NCBI GenBank assembly: GCA_951406725.2
Contig: OX597817.1
Location: 172,546,001 to 172,610,000, forward strand
DNA from: Octopus vulgaris
Taxonomy: Eukaryota
Length of the DNA stretch: 64,000 bases
Direction of reading: 5' to 3'
Shown: piece by piece, positions 7,800-62,150 of the stretch
Layout: every line of letters starts with the position of its first letter
How positions within the stretch are numbered: position 1 is the stretch's first letter
Position numbers and translations under genes: made by a program
The notes under the pieces: generated by a model
Told to the model about the DNA's origin: nothing
The model's input: the letters and a program-made list of their open reading frames with translations, nothing else
Database searches by the model: none

Positions 7800-9081
7800 C
7801 GAGAGCTGTTCATTAAAGATTTCCCCTGATCCATTCCCAAGGACTAGGATAAACGAAACTTGGCATAATTATTAGTCCTTCTCTACGTAGCCACCACCAA
7901 TGGCGATGACACACTTCTCCCATCGCTTTATGAAGCTGTGAAAACTTCGTCAGCAGAAGTCGATGGGTTGCGTCTAGAGACAAAACTTTACTTCGGAAAT
8001 AAGTTCATCATCCGATAAGTGTGTCCCCTTTAAATAAGACTTGATGGCAGGAAAGAGGTGGAAGTTAGATCGTTCGAGGTCAGGAAAGTGAGGCGAGTAA
8101 GGAAGAATTCCATAGCCGCAGGAGTGTGCTTTCATCTGGGTAACATGTGCATTGTGAACTGGGTCATTGTCTTAGTGGAGGCGGACTCCTTTAATCATCA
8201 TACCACGCCTCTCTGCTTTGATGGCGTCCCGCAGTTTCTGCAGCAGAGAAGCATTAATATGCCCCTTTAATTGTGCTGCCCTTTGCCAGAAAATCCATCA
8301 TCACTACTCCACGCAGGTCCCAAAAGATTGTGAGCATCACCTTGCCTGCTGAAGGTTGGACACCGGCCTTCTTTGGAGGTGGTGAGTTATCATGCTTCCA
8401 TTGTTTCGACTGGACTTTAGTCACAAGATCATGGTGATAGACTATTGTTTCATCCTGTGTGATAAGACGGCCGAAAACGTCCTGCTCGTTTTCTTGTCAC
8501 ATTACCAAAATATCCTGGGAGCAATTGACTCATTCCTGCTTCTGAAAAGGTGTGAGCATCCAGAGAATCCATCGTACAGACAACTTCCGCATATGCAAAT
8601 GGTTGTGAATGATTTTTTCCACACCTGCCTTCGCTTCTTGGGCTATTTGGCGAATAATTATGCAATGATTCTCCAAAATGGAGACTTCCATTTTATGGAT
8701 GGTGTCGTCATCAATGGTGGAACGTGGTCGTCCAGGAATAGGAGCAGTTTCCACCGATGACCGACCACATTAAACTGGCCGCGCCGGTACCTGACTACGA
8801 CGTACGATGTTGCATTGTCACCATAAACTACTTTCATCTCATCGAAAGTCTCTTTTGGTGTACGACCTTTCAAGTATATTAACCTGACCACTGATTTTCA
8901 TTCAACTGCCTTTATTATGACACCTTAGTCCACTTCAGAATCCGTAAAAGACATACGAATATTATTGGAAAGCTATGATTTACAATGTGATTGGTAGAGA
9001 CATATGATTGTACCTGTACAAGTTCTGTTTCCTGAAATAACCGGAAATGGGTCTGAGGAAATCTTTAATGAATATCCCTCG
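7800..9081 (-). mobile_element. Full-length decayed mariner (Tc1/mariner) DNA transposon
   Basis: Flanked by TA. TIRs are cgagagctgttcattaaagatttcc and rc cgagggatattcattaaagatttcc; length 1282 bp. Frameshifted transposase pieces: LKGRTPKETFDEMKVVYGD, PGRPRS, KLSVRWI..LT..QK. Confidence 0.92.
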
Positions 9082-19825: not shown

Positions 19826-20021
19826 TAAGGAAGCAAGGTCCTTACCACACAGCTACGCCTGCGCCTCACCCTGAAAATCAAACAACATGGTCAAACAGAC
19901 CGAGATGGCACTTCCGAATCATAGAAATACTCTGCACAGAGCAGGAATGACCATGGAATTAAATTATAGTCAAAGAGTTTAAAAAGAAAAGTGGCCTTTT
20001 TATGAAAAAGTGTTTAATTAC

Positions 20022-20170
20022 TGTTGTGTCTGGGGAGAGTCATTTTCTTTTTGTGCCTTATAATGTAACACACTCACCAGTAAAATTTCCACTTTTTTCT
20101 TATTTTTATTTTCCTAAAATTTTATATTATAAGGCACAAAAATAAAATTACTCTCCCCAGACACAACAGA
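20022..20170. repeat. Inverted repeat with ~43-bp arms
   Basis: ctgttgtgtctggggagagtcattttctttttgtgccttataat mirrors attataaggcacaaaaataaaattactctccccagacacaacag. Confidence 0.85.
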
Positions 20171-20689: not shown

Positions 20690-20741
<52 letters not shown>

Positions 20742-20904
20742 TGTTGTTGTTGTTGTTGTTGCTCTTCTTGCTTAATCCTGTGTCGGACCTGTCCAAATAA
20801 TCTTATGGCAAAATATGTTCTCTTCAACAAGGTCTTGCCCTTATTGAGATGTGTGCCTCAGTGACCCTGAGTGCTATGCCAGCGGAACACAAGCCTCTAC
20901 CCTG

Positions 20905-23900
20905 CTGGACAGATCAAAAGATACCGACCAATCAAATACCAAAGAGGGTGCCGACAGAGATCAAAGAGAGGGTCGACTGAGATCAAAGAGGGTGTCAACA
21001 GAGATCAAAGAGAAAGCCGACAGAGATCAAATAAGAGTACCGACAGAGATCAAAGAGGCTGCCGACAGTGAACAAAGACGGAGCCGAATGAGGTCAAAGA
21101 GGGTGCTGACAGAGATCAAATAGGGTGCCGACAGAGATCAAATAGGGTGTCAACCGAGATCAAAGACGATCCCGAAAGAGATCATAGAGGAATGTTGACA
21201 AAGAATAAAGAGGGTGCCGACAGAGATCAAAGAGGGTACCGACAGAGATCAAAGAGTGTGCCGACAGAGGTTAAAGACGAGTGCCGACAGAGATCAAAGA
21301 GGATTGCCGACAGAGATCAAAGAGTGTGTCGAAAGAGATCAAAGAAGATGCCGACAGAGATCAAAGAGCGTGTCGACAGAGATCAAATGGGATTGCCCAC
21401 AGAGATCAAAGAGGATTGCCGACAGAGATCAAAGAGGATTGCCGACAGAGATCAAAGATAATTGCCGACACAGATCAAAGAGGAATGCCGACAGAGATCA
21501 AAGAGGATTGCCGACAGAGATCAAAGAGGATTGCCGACAATCCTCTTTGATCTCTGTCGGCACCCTCTTTGATCTCTGTCTCTCTGTCGGCATCTTCTTT
21601 GATCTCTGTCGGCACCCTCTTGATCTCTCTTTGATCTCTGTCGGCAATCTTCTTTTGATCTCTGTCGGCAATCCTCTTTGATCTCTGTCGGCACCCTCTT
21701 TGATCTCTGTCGCAATCTTCTTGATCTCTGTCGGCAATCTCTGTCTTTTTGATCTCTGTCGGCACCCTCTTTGATCTCTGTCGGCTTTGATCTCTGTCAT
21801 CTTTGATCTCTGTCGGCAATCTTCTTGATCTCTGTCGGCACCCTCTTTGATCTCTGTGGCACCCTCTGATCTTGTCGGCAATTCTCTTTGATCTCTGTCG
21901 GCACCCTCTTTGATCTCTGTCGGCAATCCTCTTTGATCTCTGTCGGCACCCTCTTTGATCTCTGTCGGCACCCTCTTTGATCTCTGTCGGCAATCTTCTT
22001 TGATCTCTGTCGGCACCCTCTTTGATCTCTTTCGGCACCCTATTTGATCTCTGTCGGCAATCTTCTTTGATCTCTGTCGGCAATCCTCTTTGATCTCTGT
22101 CGGCAATCCTCTTTGATCTCTGTCGGCAATCCTCTTTGATCTCTGTCGGCACCCTCTTTGATCTCTGTCGGCACCCTCTTTGATCTCTGTCGGCACCCTT
22201 TTGATCTCTGTCGGCAATCTTCCTTGATCTCTGTCGACACCCCTCTTTGATCTCTGTCGGCAATCCTCTTTGATCTCTGTCGGCAATCCTCTTTGATCTC
22301 TGTCGGCAATCCTCTTTGATCTCTTTCGGCAATCTTCTTTGATCTCTGTCGGCACCCTCTTTGATCTCTGTCGGCACCCTCTTTGATCTCTGTCGGCAAT
22401 CTTCTTTGATCTCTGTCGGCAATCTTCTTTGATATCTGTCGGCAATCCTCTTTGATCTCTGTCGGCAATCCTCTTTGATCTCTGTCGGCACCCTCTTTGA
22501 TCTCTGTCGGCAATCCTCTTTGATCTCTGTCGGCACCCTCTTTGATCTCTGTCGGCAATCTTCTTTGATCTCTGTCGGCAATCCTATTTGATCTCTGTCG
22601 GCAATCCTCTTTGATCTCTGTCGGCAATCCTCTTTGATCTCTGTCGGCACCCTCTTTGATCTCTGTCGGCACCCTCTTTGATCTCTGTCGGCAATCCCCT
22701 TTGATCTCTGTCGACACCCTCTTTGATCTCTGTCGGCAATCCTCTTTGATCTCTGTTGGCAATCCTCTTTGATCTCTGTCGGCAATCCTCTTTGATCTCT
22801 GTCGGCAATCTTCTTTGATCTCTGTCGGCACCCTCTTTGATTTCTGTCGGCACCCTCTTTGATCTCTGTCGGTAATCTTCTTTGATCTCTGTCGGCAATC
22901 TTCTTTGATCTCTGTCGGCAATCTTCTTTGATCTCTGTCGGCACCCTCTTTGATCTCTGTCGGCACCCTTTGATCTCAGTCGGTAATCTTCTTTGATCTC
23001 TGTCGACACCCCTCTTTGATCTCTGTCGGCAATCCTCTTTCATCTCTGTCGGCAATCCTCTTTGATCTCTGTCGGCACCCTCTTTGATCTCTGTCGGCAA
23101 TCTTCTTTGATCTCTGTCGGCAATCTTCTTTGATCTCTGTCGGCACCCTCTTTGATCTCTTTCGGCACCCTATTTGATCTCTGTCGGCAATCTTCTTTTG
23201 ATCTCTGTCGGCAATCCTCTTTGATCTCTGTCGGCACCCTCTTTGATCTCTGTCGGCAATCTTCTTTGATCTCTGTCGGCAATCTTCTTTGATCTCTTGA
23301 TCTCTGTCGGCACCCTCTTTGATCTCTGTTGGCACCCTCTTTGATCTATGTCGGCAATTCTCTTTGATCTCTGTCGGCACCCTCTTTGATATCTGTCGGC
23401 AATCCTCTTTGATCTATGTCGACACCCTCTTTGATCTCTGTCAGCACCCTCTTTGATCTCTGTCGGCAATCTTCTTTGATCTCTGTCGGCAATCTTCTTT
23501 GATCTCTGTCGGCAACCTCTTTGATCTCTGTCGGCACCCTCTTTGATCTCTGTTGGCACCCTCTTTGATCTCTGTCGGTAATCTTCTTTGATCTCTGTCG
23601 GCACCCTCTTTGATCTCTGTTGGCAATCCTCTTTGATCTCTGTCGGCAATCCTCTTTGATCTATGTCGGCAATCCTCTTTGATCTATTTCGTTAATCCTC
23701 TTTGATCTCTGTCGGCAATCCTCTTTGATCTCTGTCGGCACCCTCTTTGATCTCTGTCGCCAATCCTCTTTGATCTCTGTCGGCACCCTCTTTGATCTCT
23801 GTCGGCAATCTTCTTTGATCGCTGTCGGCCATCTTCTTTGATCTCTGTCGGCAATCCTCTTTGATCTCTGTCGGCACACTCTTTGATCTCTGTCGGCAAT

Positions 23901-24711
23901 CCTCTTTGATCGCTCTCGGCCATATTCTTTGATCTCTGTCGGCAATCCTCTTTGATCTCTGTCGGCACCCTCTTTGATCTCTGTCGGCAATCTTCTTTGA
24001 TCGCTGTCGGCCATCTTCTTTGATCTCTGTCGCCAATCCTCTTTGATCTCTGTCGGCACCCTCTTTGATCTCTGTCGCCAATCCTCTTTGATCTCTGTCG
24101 GCACACTCTTTGATCTCTGTCGGTACCCTCTTTGATCTCTGGCCGCACCCTCTTTGATCTCTGGCGGCACCCTCTTTGATCTCTGTCGACAACCCTCTTT
24201 GATCTCTGTCGACAATCCTCTTTGATCTCTGTCGGCACCCTCTTTGATCTCTGTCGGCACCCTCTTTGATCTCTGTCTGCAATTCTCTTTGATCTCTGTC
24301 TGCAATCCTCTTTGATCTCTGTCGGCAATCTTCTTTGATCTCTGTCGGCAATCCTCTTTGATCTATGTCGGCAATCTCTTTGATTTCTGTCGGCTCCCTC
24401 TTTGATCTATGTCGCCAATCCTCTTTGATCTCTGTCGGCACCCTCTTTGATCTCTGTCGGCAATCCTCTTTGATCTATGTCGGCAATCCTCTTTGATCTC
24501 TGTCGGCTCCCTCTTTGATCTATGTCGCCAATCCTCTTTGATCTCTGTCGGCACCCTCTTTGATCTCTGTCGGCACTCTCTTTGATCTATGTCGCCAATC
24601 CTCTTTGATCTATGTCGGCACCCTCTTTGATCTCTGTCGGCACCCTCTTTGATCTATGTCGGCAATCCTCTTTGATCTCTGTCGGTAATCTTCTTTGATC
24701 TCTGTCGGCAC
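20905..24711. repeat. 22/23-bp minisatellite (~165-170 units by length) with an internal orientation switch at ~21537
   Basis: Constant core ctttgatctctgtcggca with variant linkers ccct, atcct or atctt. The array is in the opposite orientation over 20905-21535. Confidence 0.97.
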
Positions 24712-25009
24712 TATTCTAATAAGCTATTCTACAACTGCCATTTTAGCTAAAAAATATCCCAAAAGCTCTAGAATTGTGAACTCGCTATTGTGTTATGTTT
24801 ATTTGAACAAATTCAACAAAAATATTAAATTCTTTGTGTTGCGATACTTGTGAATCGACTTGATACTGGGTCATGACTTTGAGTCTCCATGGGAATAAAT
24901 TTAATCGACCAATCAAAACTAACAAAGTAGATAACAATTCATTGGTCGAGGTGACACTCTTCTTTCCTTCCTCTGCACATGATAAATAATGTAAAGTTGA
25001 CTGCTCAGC

Positions 25010-25510
25010 CTCCTTCGTCTCCTCTTTTAGCTTGGGGAACAATCAAAACCCACAGGGAACAAGATGTGGACTGTAGGAAGGATGTGAGACAGTTTTGATG
25101 CCCATCTTTGTCAAGTAGTTGGTAATCAGGATGGAATTGTGAACTGTTGCATTGTTCTGGTACATGTGTTCTAGACTTTTTGCGATGAAATCTCTTCCTG
25201 GACGCCCTCAAAATCTTCACAAAGTACTCTTTGCTGACCGTCTGCTCAGAAGGAACTCAGTGGGTGTAGATTATGCTCTTGCTGTCGAAAAAGAGAATCA
25301 TCATGAGCTTCCGGCAGACTTGCTTTACCTAGCCTCTTGTGCCAACGAAAAACAGATGCTAGTCTTATACAAGTTCATCCGTAAGCAAGCTGGGGCATTT
25401 CATATGTTTCTGCAGCATTTTTGCACAGTTTAACACAAACTTTATTGCATAGCAGTCTTCCATATTGACTTCCCGTCCCGACTACATCTCCGAACTAGTC
25501 AGCCGTAACA
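25010..25510 (-). mobile_element. Mariner transposase catalytic-domain fragment
   Basis: Hand translation SKSAGKLMMILFFDSKSIIYTH*VPSEQTVSKEYFVKILRASRKRFHRK, then a decayed YSPDLAP-like block followed by LFPKLK. Confidence 0.8.
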
Positions 25511-33545: not shown

Positions 33546-34169
33546 TTTTATTTTTTTTTATTTATAGTATCCTTCTGCTATTTCAACTGGTTCCATATAA
33601 TGGGTTGTGCGTACGTTGGAGCACGCTATCGATATTATTGCAGCTTTCGGCAACATAATAGGTTATTAATTATTAATTTCGAGTTAATATATAATATCGA
33701 TTTCTCTTAAGATGCACAAGGCTTCGTATTCATAATGAACTTATACACATTGGTGTTCATATTTTTTCAATTGTTCTTTTCAAACAGTTAATTATCAATA
33801 TAAATATAGTGAAATGGATTATAAAGTGATCACGGAAGTAGAGTCACGATTGTATTTATTGTACAATAGCTGAAGAGGCTGACTGCCAAATTTGATACGT
33901 CAAATGCATCGATTCTTACGGATTGTTTTGTGTGTGTGTGTGTTTTGAGGGAATGCGTTCTATTTTGGACTTGTTATGACGTAAGCACTGTGAATGAAAC
34001 GAAGAAGACAAAAACTTGTGAAAGCCCGTCACATGGATCGAACATGAAGTTCATGCGGTTTCGCTTTATCACAGTGGGACGCTGAAATCTGCCTGAGTAT
34101 TATAACGTTGAGGGTTACGAGTGTGCGTGAGAGAGAGATTCAACCACTTACTCTTATGCTCCAATGTGT

Positions 34170-34553
34170 GGAAGCACTCCGTCGGTTACGACGACGAGGG
34201 TTCCGGTTGATCCGAATCAACGGAACAGCCTGCTCATGAAATTAACGTGTATGTGGCTAAGCACTCCACAGACACGTGTACCCTTAACGTAGTTCTCGGG
34301 GATATTCAGCGTGACACAGAGAGTGACAAGATCGGCCCTTTGAAATACAGGTACAAGAGAAACAGGAAGAGAGAGTGAAAGGAAGTTGTGGTGAAAGAGT
34401 ACAGCAGGGATCACCACCATCCCCTGCCGGAGCCTCGTGGAGCTTTAGGTGTTTTCGCTCAATAAACACTCACAACGCCCGGTCTGGGAATCGAAACCGC
34501 GATCCTACGACCGCGAGTCCGCTGCCCTAACCACTGGGCCATTGCGCCTCCAC
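34170..34553 (-). mobile_element. Young tRNA(Arg-like) SINE family C with TSD
   Basis: Reverse-complement head gtggaggcgcaatggcccagtggttagggcagcggactcgcgg...ggtttcgattccc (A and B boxes). TSD is tatgctcca. Confidence 0.9.
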
Positions 34554-43077: not shown

Positions 43078-43415
43078 CGTAGGATCGCGGTTTCGATTCC
43101 CAGACCGGGCATTGTGAGTGTTTATTGAGCGAAAACACCTAAAGCTCCACGATGCTCCGGCAGGGATGGTGGTGATCCCTGCTGTACTCTTTCACCACAA
43201 CTTTCTCTCACTCTTACTTCCTGTTTCTGTTGTACCTGTATTTCAAAGGGCCGGCCTTGTCACTCTCTGTGTCACGCTGAATATCCCCGAGAACTACGTT
43301 AAGGGTGCACGTGTCTGTGGAGTGCTCAGCCGCTTACACGTTAATTTCACGAGCAGGCTGTTCCGTTGATCGGATCAACTGGAACCCTCGTCGTCGGAAC
43401 CGACGGAGTGCTTCC
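43078..43415 (+). mobile_element. SINE family C, 5'-truncated
   Basis: Near-identical to 45485-45868. Confidence 0.9.
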
Positions 43416-43657
43416 AATTGTCACATTTCAGCTTGTGTTTTTTTTCACGATGTTCGGGGGTTGTCGTCTTTCAATTTTATTTGTCCAAAACTCCGTTTAA
43501 GATGTTCTTCTCCAGTGCAAAAGCAAGGGATTTCTGGCTGTATTTTCACGTCGTCGTCGTTGTTGTTGTTGTTGTTGCTGCTGCTTCGGCTGCTGCTGCT
43601 GCTCTTGGTATTATGCTCTATTTCATTCTTCTATGTTGATTTAAAAATATAAACAAC

Positions 43658-44367: not shown

Positions 44368-44749
44368 GAAGCACTCCGTCGGTTACGACGACGAGGGTTC
44401 CGGTTGATCCGATCAACAGAACAGCCTGCTCGTGAAATTAACGTGTAAGTGGCTGAGTACTCCACAGACACGTGTACCCTTAACGTAGTTCTAGGGGATA
44501 TTCAGCGTGACACAGAGAGTGACAAGGCCGGCCCTTTGAAATACAGGTACAGCAGAAACAGGAAGTAAGAGTGAGAGAAAATTGTGGTGAAAGGGTACAG
44601 CAGGGATCACCACCATCCCCTGCCGGAGCCTCGTGGAGCTTTAGGTGTTTTCACTCAATAAACACTCACAACGCCCGGTCTGGGAATCGAAACCGCGATC
44701 CTACGACCGCGAGTCCGCTGCCCAAACCACTGGGCCATTGCGCCTCCAC
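44368..44749 (-). mobile_element. SINE family C with TSD cgaagagaaat
   Basis: Full family C sequence with direct repeats at 44355 and 44751. Confidence 0.92.
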
Positions 44750-44827
44750 ACGAAGAGAAATATAATATACTTCAAACTCTATAGCTAAAATAAAACGTGT
44801 ATCACAAGGAACCTTTTAGTTATAACC

Positions 44828-45420: not shown

Positions 45421-45484
45421 AAAACAAAACAAAGATGATTACCCATCAACGATTTCCTATTGTAAGCGTTCGTATACCAATGTT

Positions 45485-45868
45485 GTGGAGGCGCAATGGC
45501 CCAGTGGTTAGGGCAGCGAACTCGCGGTCGTAGGATTGCGGTTTCGATTCCCAGACCGGGCATTGTGAGTGTTTATTGAGCGAAAACACCTAAAGCTCCA
45601 CGAGGCTCCGGCAGGGGATGGTGGTGATCCCTGCTGTACTCTTTCACCACAACTTTCTCTCACTCTTACTTCCTGTTTCTGTTGTACCTGTATTTCAAAG
45701 GGGCCGGTCTTGTCACTCTCTGTGTCACGCTGAATATCCCCGAGAATTACGTTAAGGGTACACGTGTCTGTGGAGTGCTCAGCCACTTACACGTTAATTT
45801 CACGAGCAGGCTGTTCCGTTGATCGGATCAACCGGAACCCTCGTCGTCGTAACCGACGGAGTGCTTCC
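45485..45868 (+). mobile_element. SINE family C, full length
   Basis: Full family C sequence; taccaatgtt is repeated on both sides. Confidence 0.92.
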
Positions 45869-48142: not shown

Positions 48143-48593
48143 GTCCATTCCAATGCGGTTTTGTTGTCATCTTCAAACGTTTGTTTCGTTGCCATAGATA
48201 TGTTTTATTACGTCAGACTATTCTGTGACAAAACTTCACATTTGAACAATTTTCGATTCACACGATTTTCTATCAAATCATATTTTATTTTACTCCAGCA
48301 ACTGAAAAAGGATGCGTTTGACTATCTTAAATAAGAATCATGAGGAACTTCTTTGTACTATTTTTTAAATAATCCTATCCAAGTCTCAGTTCCATAACAC
48401 AACTGATATAAGACAAGAATACACAACGAAGGTTTTCCAAATGTAAGCATCCATAATCAAAGGTCAAATATTCACCACTAAAAATGGATTCTGCATTCGA
48501 ACGCACCGGGGAATATTTCAGCGTTTGGTCTTAATACTACATCCGTCGCTCTGTTTATTCATATGCAAAGTTTAAAGTAAGATATGGATGGAT

Positions 48594-48979
48594 GGAAGCA
48601 CTCCGTCGGTTCCGACGACGAGGGTTCCGGTTGATCCGAATCAACGGAACAGCCTGCTCGTGAAATTAACGTGTAAGTGGCTGAGTACTCCACAGACACG
48701 TGTACCCTTAACGTAGTTCTTGGGGATATTCAGCGTGACACAGAGAGTGACAAGGCCGGCCCTTTGAAATACAGGTACAACAGAAACAGGAAGTAAGAGT
48801 GAGAGAAAGTTGTGGTGAAAGAGTACAGCAGGGATCACCACCATCCCCTGCCGGAGCCTCGTGGAGCTTTTAGGTGTTTTTCGCTCAATAAACACTCACA
48901 ACGCCCGGTCTGGGAATCGAAACCGCGATCCTTCGACCGCGAGTCCGCTGCCCTAACCACTGGGCCATTGCGCCTCCAC
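48594..48979 (-). mobile_element. SINE family C with TSD aaagtaagatat
   Basis: Full family C sequence with a short (tcca)n tail. Confidence 0.92.
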
Positions 48980-49369
48980 AAAGTAAGATATACACTCCCA
49001 GGAGAGACGGAGAGACGTGGGGATAGGGTCCCTTGGCACATCCTTCATATTTTATTCATGGTTACATATTTAAATCCCATCGATTTTTTTTATTATTATT
49101 CTTTTATTTGTTCCAGTCATTGGACTGCGGCCATTGGAAGGGGATGAGGGCACCACCCCGAAGGGTTTAGTCGAGAGGTGTGATGGTAGCAGACATTTTC
49201 AACATGTTGTGCCATCTTCGATTGATGATCCTTCGGGATACACTTTTCTGTAACAGAAGGAATCAATGAAAGTGCTTAGTGAATAAGCCTGCCAGAAATA
49301 GCAACAACATTCCCTCAAATAACAAAATGCAATGCGAAATTTAAAAATAAAAGAACTGTAGAGTAACGT

Positions 49370-54994: not shown

Positions 54995-55274
54995 TTATTT
55001 AAAATAAGCATACTGCATCATTTCAGAACTGGTGAATTTTGGTGCTGGATGAATTGAAGTGTCCATAACTGGAGATCTGACCTTGATGCGACGTATGTGA
55101 GTATCCCGGCCATTCTGATGATTGGAAAGAACTGCAAGTTGAATCATAAAAGTTCGTATATGTTTGTCATTTGAATCTTTGAGAGGAATCCTAACCCAAC
55201 CAACTGGTTCGATTAGTTCCACTTGCTCAAGTTCGACTAAATCGTGGAAATTATTTCCTGCACGAATTGAGATT
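54995..55274 (-). CDS. ANAPC10: Anaphase-promoting complex subunit 10 (APC10/Doc1), last coding exon
   Basis: PolyT-cag acceptor, then (R)ISIRAGNNFHDLVELEQVELIEPVGWVRIPL...RTFMIQLAVLSNHQNGRDTHIRRIKV...stop TAA. NHQNGRDTH is the APC10 signature. Phase 2 matches the upstream exon, and an AATAAA lies about 30 nt past the stop. Confidence 0.96.
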
Positions 55275-55647
55275 CTGAAAAAAAAAAAAATGAATACTTG
55301 AATTATTATGGAAGACTTTCAAGGAAAAATTAATTTATTTCCAATCATCAACCTACTAAGACCTGAGCCCCTGCGCTTAATTTTACCCTCCACCTGGGCT
55401 CCTGGGCAGAAAAATAAATAGCTCAAGAGAAATGATTGCAGGCAAACTAATCAACAGAATCACAAAAACCTTCAAGAGAATAACAATAATGGGCCTATCT
55501 CTCAACTACTATATTTGTTCACCCAAATCACTACTTTCCTCATCATGTCCACCAGTTTAATTGTCTAAATCACTCTCGTTGTCTGTGTAAGGATAAACCC
55601 TTCATCCAAAGAATAAATATCAATAATTTCTTCCTTAACCCTTTAGA

Positions 55648-56034: not shown

Positions 56035-56412
56035 GTGTCCATAACTGAAGATCTGAACTTGATAGAAAGCCTTCGACAAGGTCCCCCGATAGAATGTGAT
56101 TAGTATCTCAGCCTTTATGGTGATTGGAAAGAACAAGTTCAATCATAAAAGTCTGTCTATGTTTGTCGTGGCACATAAAAAGCACCCACTACACTCGCGG
56201 AGTGGTTGGCGTTAGGAAGGGCATCCAGCCGTAGAAACACTGCCAGATCAGACTGGGCCTGATGAAGCCTTCCAGCTTCACAGACCCCAGTTGAACTGTC
56301 CAACCCATGCTAGCATGGAAAACGGACGCTAAATGATGATGATGATTTGAATCTTTGAGATGAATCCTGCATCATTTCAAAACCCATGAATTTTGGTGCT
56401 GAACAAATTGAT
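56035..56412 (-). pseudogene. Circularly permuted, degenerate copy of ANAPC10 last-exon sequence, interrupted by an RTE tail at 56168-56344
   Basis: 56035-56368 corresponds to 55059-55192 and is followed directly by 56367-56411, which corresponds to 55013-55057. Confidence 0.85.
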
Positions 56413-57766: not shown

Positions 57767-57797
57767 GAACAAAATAAATCTTTTAGGTTTGTTGTAC

Positions 57798-57960
57798 CTG
57801 TTGGGTGTGTAGCTCTCATCTGCTTTGTAATTTGTATAAAGACATATATCTTGAATAATTGTTTTTCGTCGGAATTGTACATTCACCAAGTGAGGTTGTG
57901 GACCGTCTGATTGCCAATAGGTGTCAAAATCTTCATCTCGTAACTGTTCAACACCAAACC
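57798..57960 (-). CDS. ANAPC10: APC10/Doc1 internal coding exon (163 bp)
   Basis: cag|GG TTT... translates as GFGVEQLRDEDFDTYWQSDGPQPHLVNVQFRRKTIIQDICLYTNYKADESYTPN(R)|gtac. TYWQSDG.QPH and DESYTP are APC10 motifs. Confidence 0.96.
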
Positions 57961-58033
57961 CTGTTTTAAAAAAAGAAATGCAACATCATGTAAATCCAAC
58001 TAATACTATTTACAAAGAAAGACTTATGTATCT

Positions 58034-59302: not shown

Positions 59303-62150
59303 GTATCATCATCGTTTAGGGTCCGCCCTCCATGCGAGCATGTGTTGGACGGTTCAACTGGGGTCTGGGAAGCCAGAGGGCTGCACCAGGCCCAGTCTGA
59401 TCTGGCAGAGTTTCTACAGCTGGATGCCCTTCCTAATGCCAACCACTCCATGAGTGTAGTGGGTGCTTTTTACGTGCCAGATGAGGGTGGCAAATGGCCA
59501 CGATCGGATGGTGCTTTTTACGTACCACCGGCACGGGAGCCAGGCGAGGCTGCAACGGCCACAAACGGATGGTGCTTTTTATGTGCCACCGGCACGGGGG
59601 CCAGACGGGGATGGCAACGGCCACAAACAGATGGTGCTTTTTACATGCCACTGGCACGAGGCCAGTCGGGGCGGCGCTGGCAACGGCCACGTTCAGATGG
59701 TTCTCTTACATGCCACTGGCACTGGTATCACAACTACAAATTCCATTGATGTTGATCGATTTTGATTCTCACTTGCCTCAACAGGTCTTCACAAGTAGAG
59801 TTTTGTGTCCCAAGAAGGGAAGGTATGCATACGTAGGCTGGCTCCATCCCATGTAGAAGGCCACAGGTTATGGACTCACTTGTCCTGCCGGGTCTTCTCG
59901 CGCACAGCATACTTCCAGAGGTTTCGGTCTCTAGTCATTTCCTCAGTGAGACCTAAAGTTCGAAACTCGTGCTTCACTACCTCGTCCCAGGTTTTCCTGA
60001 GTCTGCCTCTTCCACAGGTTCCCTCAACCACTAGGGTGGGGCACGTTTTCACACAACTATCTTCATCCATTCTTGCCACAAGACCATACCAGCGCAAACG
60101 TCTCTCTTGCACACCACATCTGATGCTTCTTCGGTCCAACTTCTCTCTCAAGGTACTTACACTCTGTCGAGTATGAACACTGACATTACACATCCATCGG
60201 AGCATACTGGCTTCATTTCTTGCGAGCTTACGCATGTCCTCAGCAGTCACGGCCCATGTTTCACTGCCATGTAGCATGGCTGTTCATACACACGCGTCAT
60301 ACAGTCTGCCTTTTACTCTGAGTGAGAGACCTTTTGTTACCAACAGAGGTAAGGGCTCTCTGAACTTTGCCCAGGCTATTCTTACTCTAGCGGTTACATT
60401 TTCAGCACACCCGCCACCGCTACTGACTTGGTCACCTAGGTAATGGAAGCTATCAACTATTTCTAGTTTTTCTCCCAGGAATGTGGCAGAAGTTGATCTC
60501 AGAGCATTTTCAGTGTTTATTGCTCCCAAGCATCTGCCACATACAAAAACTATCTTCCTAGTTAGCCTTCCTTTGACATTGCTGCACCTCTTATGTGTCC
60601 ATAGCTTACACTTGGTGCACCTTATAGAGTTTCTACCTACACCTTTTCTACAGATCAAGCAGGGCCATCTACCTGAAAGCGTTTGTGATTTGTCTACCTT
60701 CCTACTTATTAGGACTTTAGTTTTAGCTAGATTGACTCTAAGGTCCTTCGATTCTAATCCTTGCTTCCACACCTGAAACTTCTCCTCCAGTTCTGATAGT
60801 GACTCATCAATTAGAGCAAGGTCATCAGCATAGAGGAGCTCCCAGGGGCATCTTGTCTTGAATTCCTCCATTATTGCCTGGAGGAGTATGATAAATAGGA
60901 GGGGGCTGAGGTCTGAGGTCTGACCCCTACCTCTACCCGGAATTCTTCACTGTACTCGTTGCCAACCCTCACCTTACTAGCAGCGTTCCTGTACATGGCT
61001 CGCACAGCTCTTACTAACCATTCATCTATCCCTAGTTTCCTCATTGACCACCAGATAAGGGATCAGGGGACCCTGTCAAAGGCTTTCTCCATGTCAACAA
61101 AAGCTAGGTACAGGGGCTTATCTTTGGCTAGGTATTTCTCCTGCAGCTGCCTTACCAGGAATATAGCATCAGTAGTACTTTTCCCTGGCACGAACCCAAA
61201 CTGCATCTCATCTAAACTAACTCTCTCTCTAATTAGTTGGGCTATGACCCTCTCCGTAACCTTCATTACCTGATCCAACAGCTTGATACCTCTGTAATTA
61301 TTTGTATCTAGGGTGTCACCTTTAATTTGTAGCAGTTGACTATTATGCTGCTACACCAGTCATTGGGTATGACTCCTTCATGTATCACCTGATTAACTAT
61401 ACAGGTGACTAGGCTATAGCCGACACTACCAGATATTTTGAGCATCTCTGCAGTGATTCCTGATGGGCCTGGGGCTTTCCCTGTCTTCATGCTTCTAATT
61501 GCCTTAACTACCAAGGAACTGTCAACTCGGATAGCTGGTCCCTCTGTTGGGTCAACATTCGGCAGACTCTCTTTATCCCATTCATTTTCTTTATTCAGCA
61601 ACCTTTCATAGTGGCATCTCCAAACCTCTCTCTTTGCATCCTCATTTAGCGCAAGTGAACCATCATCCATGCGAACTCATTTCTCTCCTACCACGTCACG
61701 ATTCTCTCTCACACACTGTCTTGCAACACGAAACATCTCCAGACTTTGGTCCTCACGGCGCAGAACATTAGCAAATTTTTTCTTATCTACTTCCCCTCTG
61801 GCTAGATAGACCTGTCTCCTAGCTTCCCTTTTGGCAGTCTGATACAATTCCCTGCTACCACCATTCTTCCAGTCCTTCCAAGCCTGTCTCTTTTCTCTAA
61901 TAGCCCTGTCTAAAACATTGTTCCACCACCACGTTACCTGGGACGAGAGGGGACTTTGTGCCAGCCACAGATCTGGTCAGTGGCTCTCAGCAGGTTGTCC
62001 CTTAGAAACGTCCAGTTGCCTTCTACCCCATGTGCTATTCTATCCCCTTCTACTTCATCAAAGGCTTCAAGTAACATGTCCCTAAATCTCTGTCCATTCG
62101 CAGGATCTTTAAGCTTCCAGATCCTTCTTCTCCATGTTGGTCGTCTTCTT
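59303..62150 (-). mobile_element. 5'-truncated RTE LINE (RT region plus 3'UTR) in an ANAPC10 intron, sense orientation
   Basis: GKAPGPSGITAEML, QFGFVPGKSTTDAIF..QEK..AFVDMEKAFDRVP, LLYADDL, FHYLG, RRLRWYG, GRGRLRKTW. Several stops and frameshifts. Confidence 0.95.

Follow-up and report, generated by a model that had tools for sequence, protein, structure and literature searches.

The window analysed here, a stretch of 64,000 nucleotides of Octopus vulgaris DNA, carries a long minisatellite array and, as the nearest host gene found, APC10. Its features are given below. X2, X5, X7 and X11 denote four runs, from organisms A, B, C and D respectively, which were compared with the window over 24660-25320 at 82% likeness.

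7977-8897: broken mariner transposase (Pfam remnant 8257-8897)
20690..20765, + strand: (TAG)n(TTG)n microsatellite, 145 bp to the left of the array and unremarkable in this window
20910..21539, + strand: left arm of the array, 28 units
21493..21515, + strand: example 23-bp unit AGAGATCAAAGAGGATTGCCGAC; its other strand reads as an HMG-type site of 11 bp, a spacer of 5 bp and a helper-like site of 7 bp
21509..21562, no strand: strand-switch hairpin with perfect 25-bp inverted arms (21509-21533 and 21538-21562) and a 4-base loop
21540..21900, - strand: indel-rich start of the right arm, with indels in 11 of 18 units (one being the partial junction unit)
21540..24712, - strand: right arm, 144 units, the three main types intermixed, 1.4-4.2% diverged
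24713..25004, no strand: right flank, single-copy-like, with one contig in runs X2 and X5 and one long orthologous contig in X11
25005..25320, - strand: multi-copy interspersed repeat beyond the right flank
54998-55276 and 57797-57964, - strand: APC10 exons, by Pfam and protein match
59879-61676: LINE reverse-transcriptase remnant with a PHD-like stretch

The exon at 54998-55261 encodes 88 aa that are 100% identical to the Octopus vulgaris APC10 protein, and the array sits 30 kb downstream of the APC10 stop. A Pfam scan of 269 ORFs (268 of the 394 filtered ORFs of at least 45 aa, plus one) recovered no host gene besides APC10; its other matches were the one mariner remnant and the one reverse-transcriptase remnant. 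Since short exons would escape such a scan, an intronic position of the array is possible. Rfam gave 0 matches across the window, and no RNA datasets are listed for the right flank. The repeat at 25005..25320 has no Pfam match; its translation HPSYSPHLVPC resembles what we take to be a mariner transposase motif. Elsewhere in the window lie an imperfect, MITE-like inverted repeat of 150 bp and 73% identity (20021-20169, 740 bp left of the array) and a young interspersed repeat of about 385 bp, present in five copies that are 95-97% identical within 15 kb (34169-34553, 43078-43416, 44368-44750, 45483-45868 and 48593-48981). A segment of an APC10 intron (56099-56170) matches part of the last APC10 exon at 83% over 69 bp, and is perhaps a partial duplication.

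The array comprises 172 parsed units of 22 or 23 bp between 20910 and 24712, 78 of them distinct, which agrees with the roughly 165-170 units of the initial annotation. Units of 22 bp account for 71 of the 172 and units of 23 bp for 84. The three dominant types differ solely in the linker (AGGGT, AGGATT or AAGATT). The two that had been named before are indeed the commonest units, at 33 and 26 copies, and the AAGATT type, which makes up 27 of the 84 units of 23 bp, is an addition to that account. ATCAAAG is unbroken in 145 of 172 units. Allowing at most one mismatch, the 11-mer GATCAAAGAGG occurs 147 times in the window, always inside the array, against 1.2 occurrences expected from shuffles, and the rest of the window holds no unit-like sequence.

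What had been described as a single run consists of two opposed arms, 28 units on the + strand (20910-21539) and 144 on the - strand (21540-24712), which meet at 21539/21540. In the left arm, the outer 21 full-length units differ from the main types by 12.0% and the inner units by 3.5%; the outer units are an old, decayed edge. A higher-order repeat in the right arm was not supported, its longest exact internal repeat being 107 bp against a mean of 96 when unit order was shuffled. An identical pair of uncommon units stands in the same order once in each arm (21222-21265 and 24097-24140), hinting at a common ancestry of the arms. The unit length of about two helical turns had been expected to keep neighbouring sites roughly in phase. 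At 10.5 bp per turn, 22 and 23 bp correspond to 2.10 and 2.19 turns, a slip of 34-69 degrees per unit; thus neighbouring units are roughly aligned, but the array as a whole is not.

Two other origins for the array were considered. Carriage by a transposon of the Helitron or MITE type is not borne out by the right flank, which is single-copy-like, or by the adjoining flanks, which have neither flank-to-flank nor in-window copies; nor do the two flanks have an inverted or direct repeat in common. Vector contamination is ruled out by the absence of any blastn match in 72,556 plasmids (a collection unlikely to hold reporter vectors), by a contig bridging the array border and by the variation among units. 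A 25-base unit pattern had 0 matches in metagenome contigs and 0 in viral contigs.

Searching with the translated array retrieved two O. vulgaris gene models that contain the repeat, P0121 and P0122, which lie on contigs of 147.5 Mb and 119.3 Mb, respectively; the APC10 model lies on a third contig, of 176.7 Mb. The two repeat-bearing models are only 42-52% identical to the array's translation and carry linker variants of their own. P0122 has 31 units ahead of a myo-inositol transporter, giving a 243-aa repeat N-terminus. Because the unit strand has no stop in any frame, both models are probably annotation artefacts, partly or wholly satellite read as protein. Weaker protein matches, P0123 and P0125, proved to be other repeats. 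The changes that separate P0121 and P0122 from the array types lie mostly in the linker, with 75 of 227 informative sites there, 10 of 267 for ATCAAAG and 18 of 141 for GCCG.

The runs extend this picture beyond the assembly. Summed depth at 24691, relative to the single-copy flank, reached 11,248x in X2, 17,013x in X5 and about 2,700x in X7. Summed contig depth is not copy number, so a simulation of the array alone served as the yardstick; it gave a depth of about 540x with a ceiling of 3,777x. Depth in X2 and X5 is therefore 21-32 times that of the local-only simulation, which converts into rough copy numbers of about 3,600 units for X2, 5,400 for X5 and 870 for X7, with floors of about 260-510, 390-770 and 60-125 units, respectively. 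Furthermore, the AAGATT type makes up at most 3% of the X2 pool against 31% in the simulation, indicating that most copies lie outside the assembled array. Linker deletions of 2 bases account for 42% of the depth in X5 and for 0.03% in X2. The X7 values come from the same study as X2, with a satellite depth of 5.4% of that in X2 and no cover on 24729-25004, and the X7 satellite reads may stem from index hopping. At 24729-25004, six differences from the window are common to X2 and X5, and the window haplotype is nearest to neither there.

X11 retains the flank, with 22 differences in 360 bases (about 6% divergence), and has zero repeat depth on 24660-24682 at a likeness of 82%, a level at which a decayed copy would be missed. 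The X11 flank contig reaches to about 24702, over the last 10 bases of the array, where a seed or a decayed copy could lie. The 12% divergence at the left edge suggests that the seed may predate the split from organism D. The search for other loci and relatives that had been proposed with the initial annotation thus yielded two further O. vulgaris loci and a high depth in other runs, with nothing detected in X11. With its tandem units, its further loci and its locus- and lineage-specific variants, the repeat is a dispersed satellite or minisatellite family.

The units bear a close resemblance to a composite binding site for TCF. For the HMG site the published consensus reads CTTTGWWS. For the helper site, which the C-clamp binds, the human form is RCCG or RCCGCC, the fly form GCCGCCR and the C. 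elegans form GCCRAnW (PMC4267635, PMC4154663, PMC3916239). A TCF site plus a helper-like motif had been claimed for nearly every unit. The array does contain 142 CTTTGWWS sites, but RCCG lies upstream, on the other strand, for 112 of them only. Among these 112, the spacing from RCCG to the HMG site is 5 bp in 62, 4 bp in 49 and 2 bp in one. As we read the orientation naming in the text of PMC4154663, such pairs would belong to the 'akimbo' class in the preferred geometry, 111 units having the helper in the preferred orientation (AK4 or AK5). According to that source, AK6 and FF0 bind best in fly, and human TCF1E favours AK2-9. The C. elegans helper consensus is fitted by 105 units. The fly consensus GCCGCCR occurs exactly once in the array and is one mismatch away in 102 cases, the fifth helper base being the one that departs; all seven helper bases are reported to matter in a fly reporter (PMC4154663). 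The first base of the longer HMG consensus, G or C, is a T in 139 of 142 sites.

Read directly from the letters, the spacer is 4 bp in the 22-bp type, and site, spacer and helper fill the entire unit, so that the next helper follows immediately downstream of every site as well. Aligned by eye with the unit of the published 6x HMG-Helper reporter, the 23-bp type is identical at 19 of 23 ungapped columns. Given the preferred geometry, the helper fit and this alignment, the likeness to a Wnt reporter that was first proposed is closer than had been claimed. We regard it as probable that octopus TCF would bind these units in vitro. Invertebrate TCFs are described as retaining the C-clamp (PMC9303524; a survey of deuterostomes). 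Binding in nuclei may perhaps occur too, wherever the array can be reached, and would then be a passenger effect. Satellites of O. bimaculoides are reported to be relatively more methylated than other repeats (PMC9476566) and CpG methylation to weaken binding of the C-clamp to the helper (PMC4267635); hence any predicted effect in vivo would depend on chromatin.

How often such a composite arises by chance was estimated in two ways. An HMG site was present in 1,753 of 200,000 unit shuffles, and a site with a helper in the preferred position in 262. Among 59,917 circularised 22- and 23-mers from the rest of the window, the corresponding counts were 444 and 10. These values place the composite at about 1 in 800 to 1 in 6,000 per seed. 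It would thus be unusual for one given family, yet, given the many repeat families, genomes and candidate factors, one such case is to be expected. In the other 60 kb of the window, 0 of 19 CTTTGWWS sites have a helper, indicating that site-helper pairs are otherwise rare.

If TCF binding had shaped the array, both motifs might be depleted of substitutions, and this check had been suggested for ATCAAAG and GCCG. Counts were matched by base class, using 155 of the 172 units in one set and 169 in the other. G/C positions mutate 2-3 times as often as A/T positions, which explains part of the calm of the core. After matching, the ratio of observed to expected substitutions in ATCAAAG was 0.44 over all units, 0.51 over distinct units, 0.61 over clustered events and 0.66 in the left arm only, with permutation P values of 0.006, 0.009, 0.067 and 0.20; core depletion is thus not significant in the left arm alone. 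The same four counts gave no depletion for GCCG (1.00, 0.92, 1.08 and 0.89). In short, the signs of constraint are mixed, and the suggested check comes out half in favour: the core looks moderately depleted, to an extent that varies with the counting method, and the helper mutates at the background rate. The helper also lacks CpG decay (7 CpG against 12 non-CpG transition events), and small indels strike the A-run too, several of them in the doubtful stretch near the junction.

A second view comes from the variants that have themselves been amplified, pooled from three loci and run X5. This list is small, partly assembled by hand and drawn in part from loci found by similarity. None of its 16 variants touches the 8 core columns (P 0.001-0.014), nine lie in the linker (P 0.004-0.031), and GCCG, which is not depleted, takes four, two of them breaking CCG. 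Restricted to the window, the count for the core is 0 of 8, a weak result (P 0.03-0.12). Across the 11 major types there is a single helper change, and RCCG is preserved. Variation had initially been placed in the linker between the two motifs; most amplified variation does lie there, but helper changes are as frequent as the background.

Altogether, we favour the reading of the repeat as a recently amplified satellite of the O. vulgaris group that has copied a chance TCF composite site, and give it a probability of about 0.62; a Wnt role is not part of this reading. A seed of 22 or 23 bp would have expanded and then spread to several chromosomes, and slippage, unequal exchange and conversion would have raised a separate set of linker variants at each locus or in each lineage. 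By chance the seed would have held a TCF HMG site beside a helper-like site, and its expansion would have produced an array resembling a synthetic Wnt reporter. The caveat of the initial annotation, that a short motif in a seed is copied by any expansion, fits a multi-locus family restricted to a lineage. Satellites in general are described as amplifying to different degrees in different relatives and as carrying conserved motifs in their monomers (PMC12692304). Against a chance seed speak the depletion of the core after base-class matching, the 0 of 16 amplified variants in the core and the low prior for the composite. We class the array as a member of a dispersed satellite family rather than as a Wnt-responsive element.

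The core could also be conserved for reasons unconnected with TCF. The AGATCAAAG block might mark a point where unit exchange starts or is resolved, or might be held by another binder of the HMG/Sox or zinc-finger kind, the helper match being incidental. The quietest 7-column windows of the unit begin at columns 7 and 4, and the ATCAAAG window, which ranks third among the 23, belongs to a wide stretch of quiet, purine-rich columns. The core-only pattern, with its unconstrained helper, fits such a cause, and conserved motifs are described as common in satellite monomers (PMC12692304). The Sox/SRY consensus is WWCAAWG, which ATCAAAG also fits. Nothing points directly to another binder, however, and the correctly placed helper would be left to chance. 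We consider this alternative unlikely.

Selection for a TCF/beta-catenin platform is the alternative that the array most readily calls to mind. In this view CTTTGATC would hold the HMG box and the helper, 4-5 bp upstream, the C-clamp, and the arrays would act as Wnt-responsive enhancers wherever they have spread or would jointly titrate the single TCF. The 111 pairs in AK4 or AK5 geometry, the fit of 105 helpers to the C. elegans consensus, the 19 of 23 columns in common with the reporter unit and the rarity of site-helper pairs elsewhere (0 of 19) all speak for it. So do the amplified variants at three loci, which spare the core, and the helper that is free of CpG decay, given that CpG methylation weakens C-clamp binding. 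Selection of this kind would explain the spared core and the geometry, but not the unconstrained helper, which mutates at the background rate. The T at the first site base and the missed fly helper consensus also tell against it, as do the small and partly hand-assembled list of amplified variants, the relative methylation of O. bimaculoides satellites and the lack of a target gene nearby, the sole host gene found, APC10, being 30 kb off. Moreover, the repeat is undetected in a relative that is about 6% diverged, so that any role would have to be young. A platform of this type seems to us quite improbable. The same low standing applies to its wider form, a natural Wnt-reporter satellite, young and built of a TCF site, a helper and a flexible spacer, whose arrays on several chromosomes would recruit TCF/beta-catenin, adding enhancers specific to the lineage or buffering Wnt output, while TCF binding would filter the variants that spread.

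The two-arm structure may reflect an inversion that truly arose by template switching, or a join made in assembly. As an explanation of the whole, an assembly product would consist of two arrays of the family, or the ends of a much longer one, joined on repeat sequence, with the depth arising from collapsed arrays. The indels cluster just past the junction, affecting 11 of 18 units there but 5 of 125 in the rest of the right arm (Fisher P 1e-8), as either sequence error or palindrome-driven deletion would leave them; in addition, array starts abut both flanks and read depth exceeds what the array yields. Yet a 466-bp contig of run X2 spans the right border, the other loci exist independently, and the junction falls on a 2-base microhomology within a unit, as a template switch would give. 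The right arm mirrors the left for the first unit alone and not beyond; as the arms are not mirror copies, a simple fold-back read is ruled out. An artefact on this scale is thus very improbable. That the junction alone was made in assembly is a good deal easier to accept, though we lean against it, and the family would remain in that case.

The idea that the repeat encodes a basic repeat protein or a transporter N-terminus can be dismissed as barely credible, since the ORFs of the unit strand, which reach 564 aa, follow automatically from its being stop-free in every frame, units of 22 and 23 bp with their indels break the frame, and, although two gene models take in the repeat, the one strong match among 1.84 billion representatives is itself an Octopus model.

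Even if the repeat is ordinary, it accounts for two gene models that are probably artefacts, and as an octopus satellite it is apparently undescribed: a literature search over titles and the starts of abstracts, to the exclusion of subscription journals, found nothing on this repeat or on a satellite of TCF sites. If TCF binds the repeat in vivo, the family would make it possible to ask directly whether a core developmental pathway is rewired or titrated by satellite expansions, and the close relative where the repeat is undetected would serve as an internal control.

Several known systems help to place it. Satellite families that follow the library model, as described in PMC12692304, likewise form short arrays at several loci with locus- and species-specific variants and decayed edges, and are abundant in some relatives and undetected in another; unlike them, the octopus unit is wholly made of the composite site of a signalling factor. 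The Helitron-borne heat-shock elements of Caenorhabditis (PMC6927752) are also species-specific repeats that multiply the sites of one factor at many loci; binding is reported for these elements. No carrier transposon is seen at the octopus array. Human Satellite 3, as a TEAD/YAP platform (PMC11526998), resembles the octopus repeat in multiplying the motif of a signalling-pathway factor; as a feature of genomes, the octopus repeat stands nearest to this satellite and to the Helitron elements. It is megabase-scale, with binding and function demonstrated according to that report, whereas the octopus family is estimated at a few thousand units, is lineage-restricted and is known from sequence. 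In design, the likeness is with synthetic constructs, namely the 6x HMG-Helper reporter built on the POPHHOP unit (PMC3916239) and the AK-type pairs (PMC4154663), which have the same core, the same helper orientation and, for the 23-bp type, the same 5-bp spacing. In contrast to POPHHOP, the octopus unit has T for G/C at the first site base and GCCGACA for GCCGCCA, and the array runs to about 170 copies and lacks a promoter. The multimerised design of such reporters is said, in the text of PMC3916239, to be absent from endogenous Wnt elements. Should TCF bind the octopus repeat in vivo, the family would be the equivalent in nature of such multimerised reporters.
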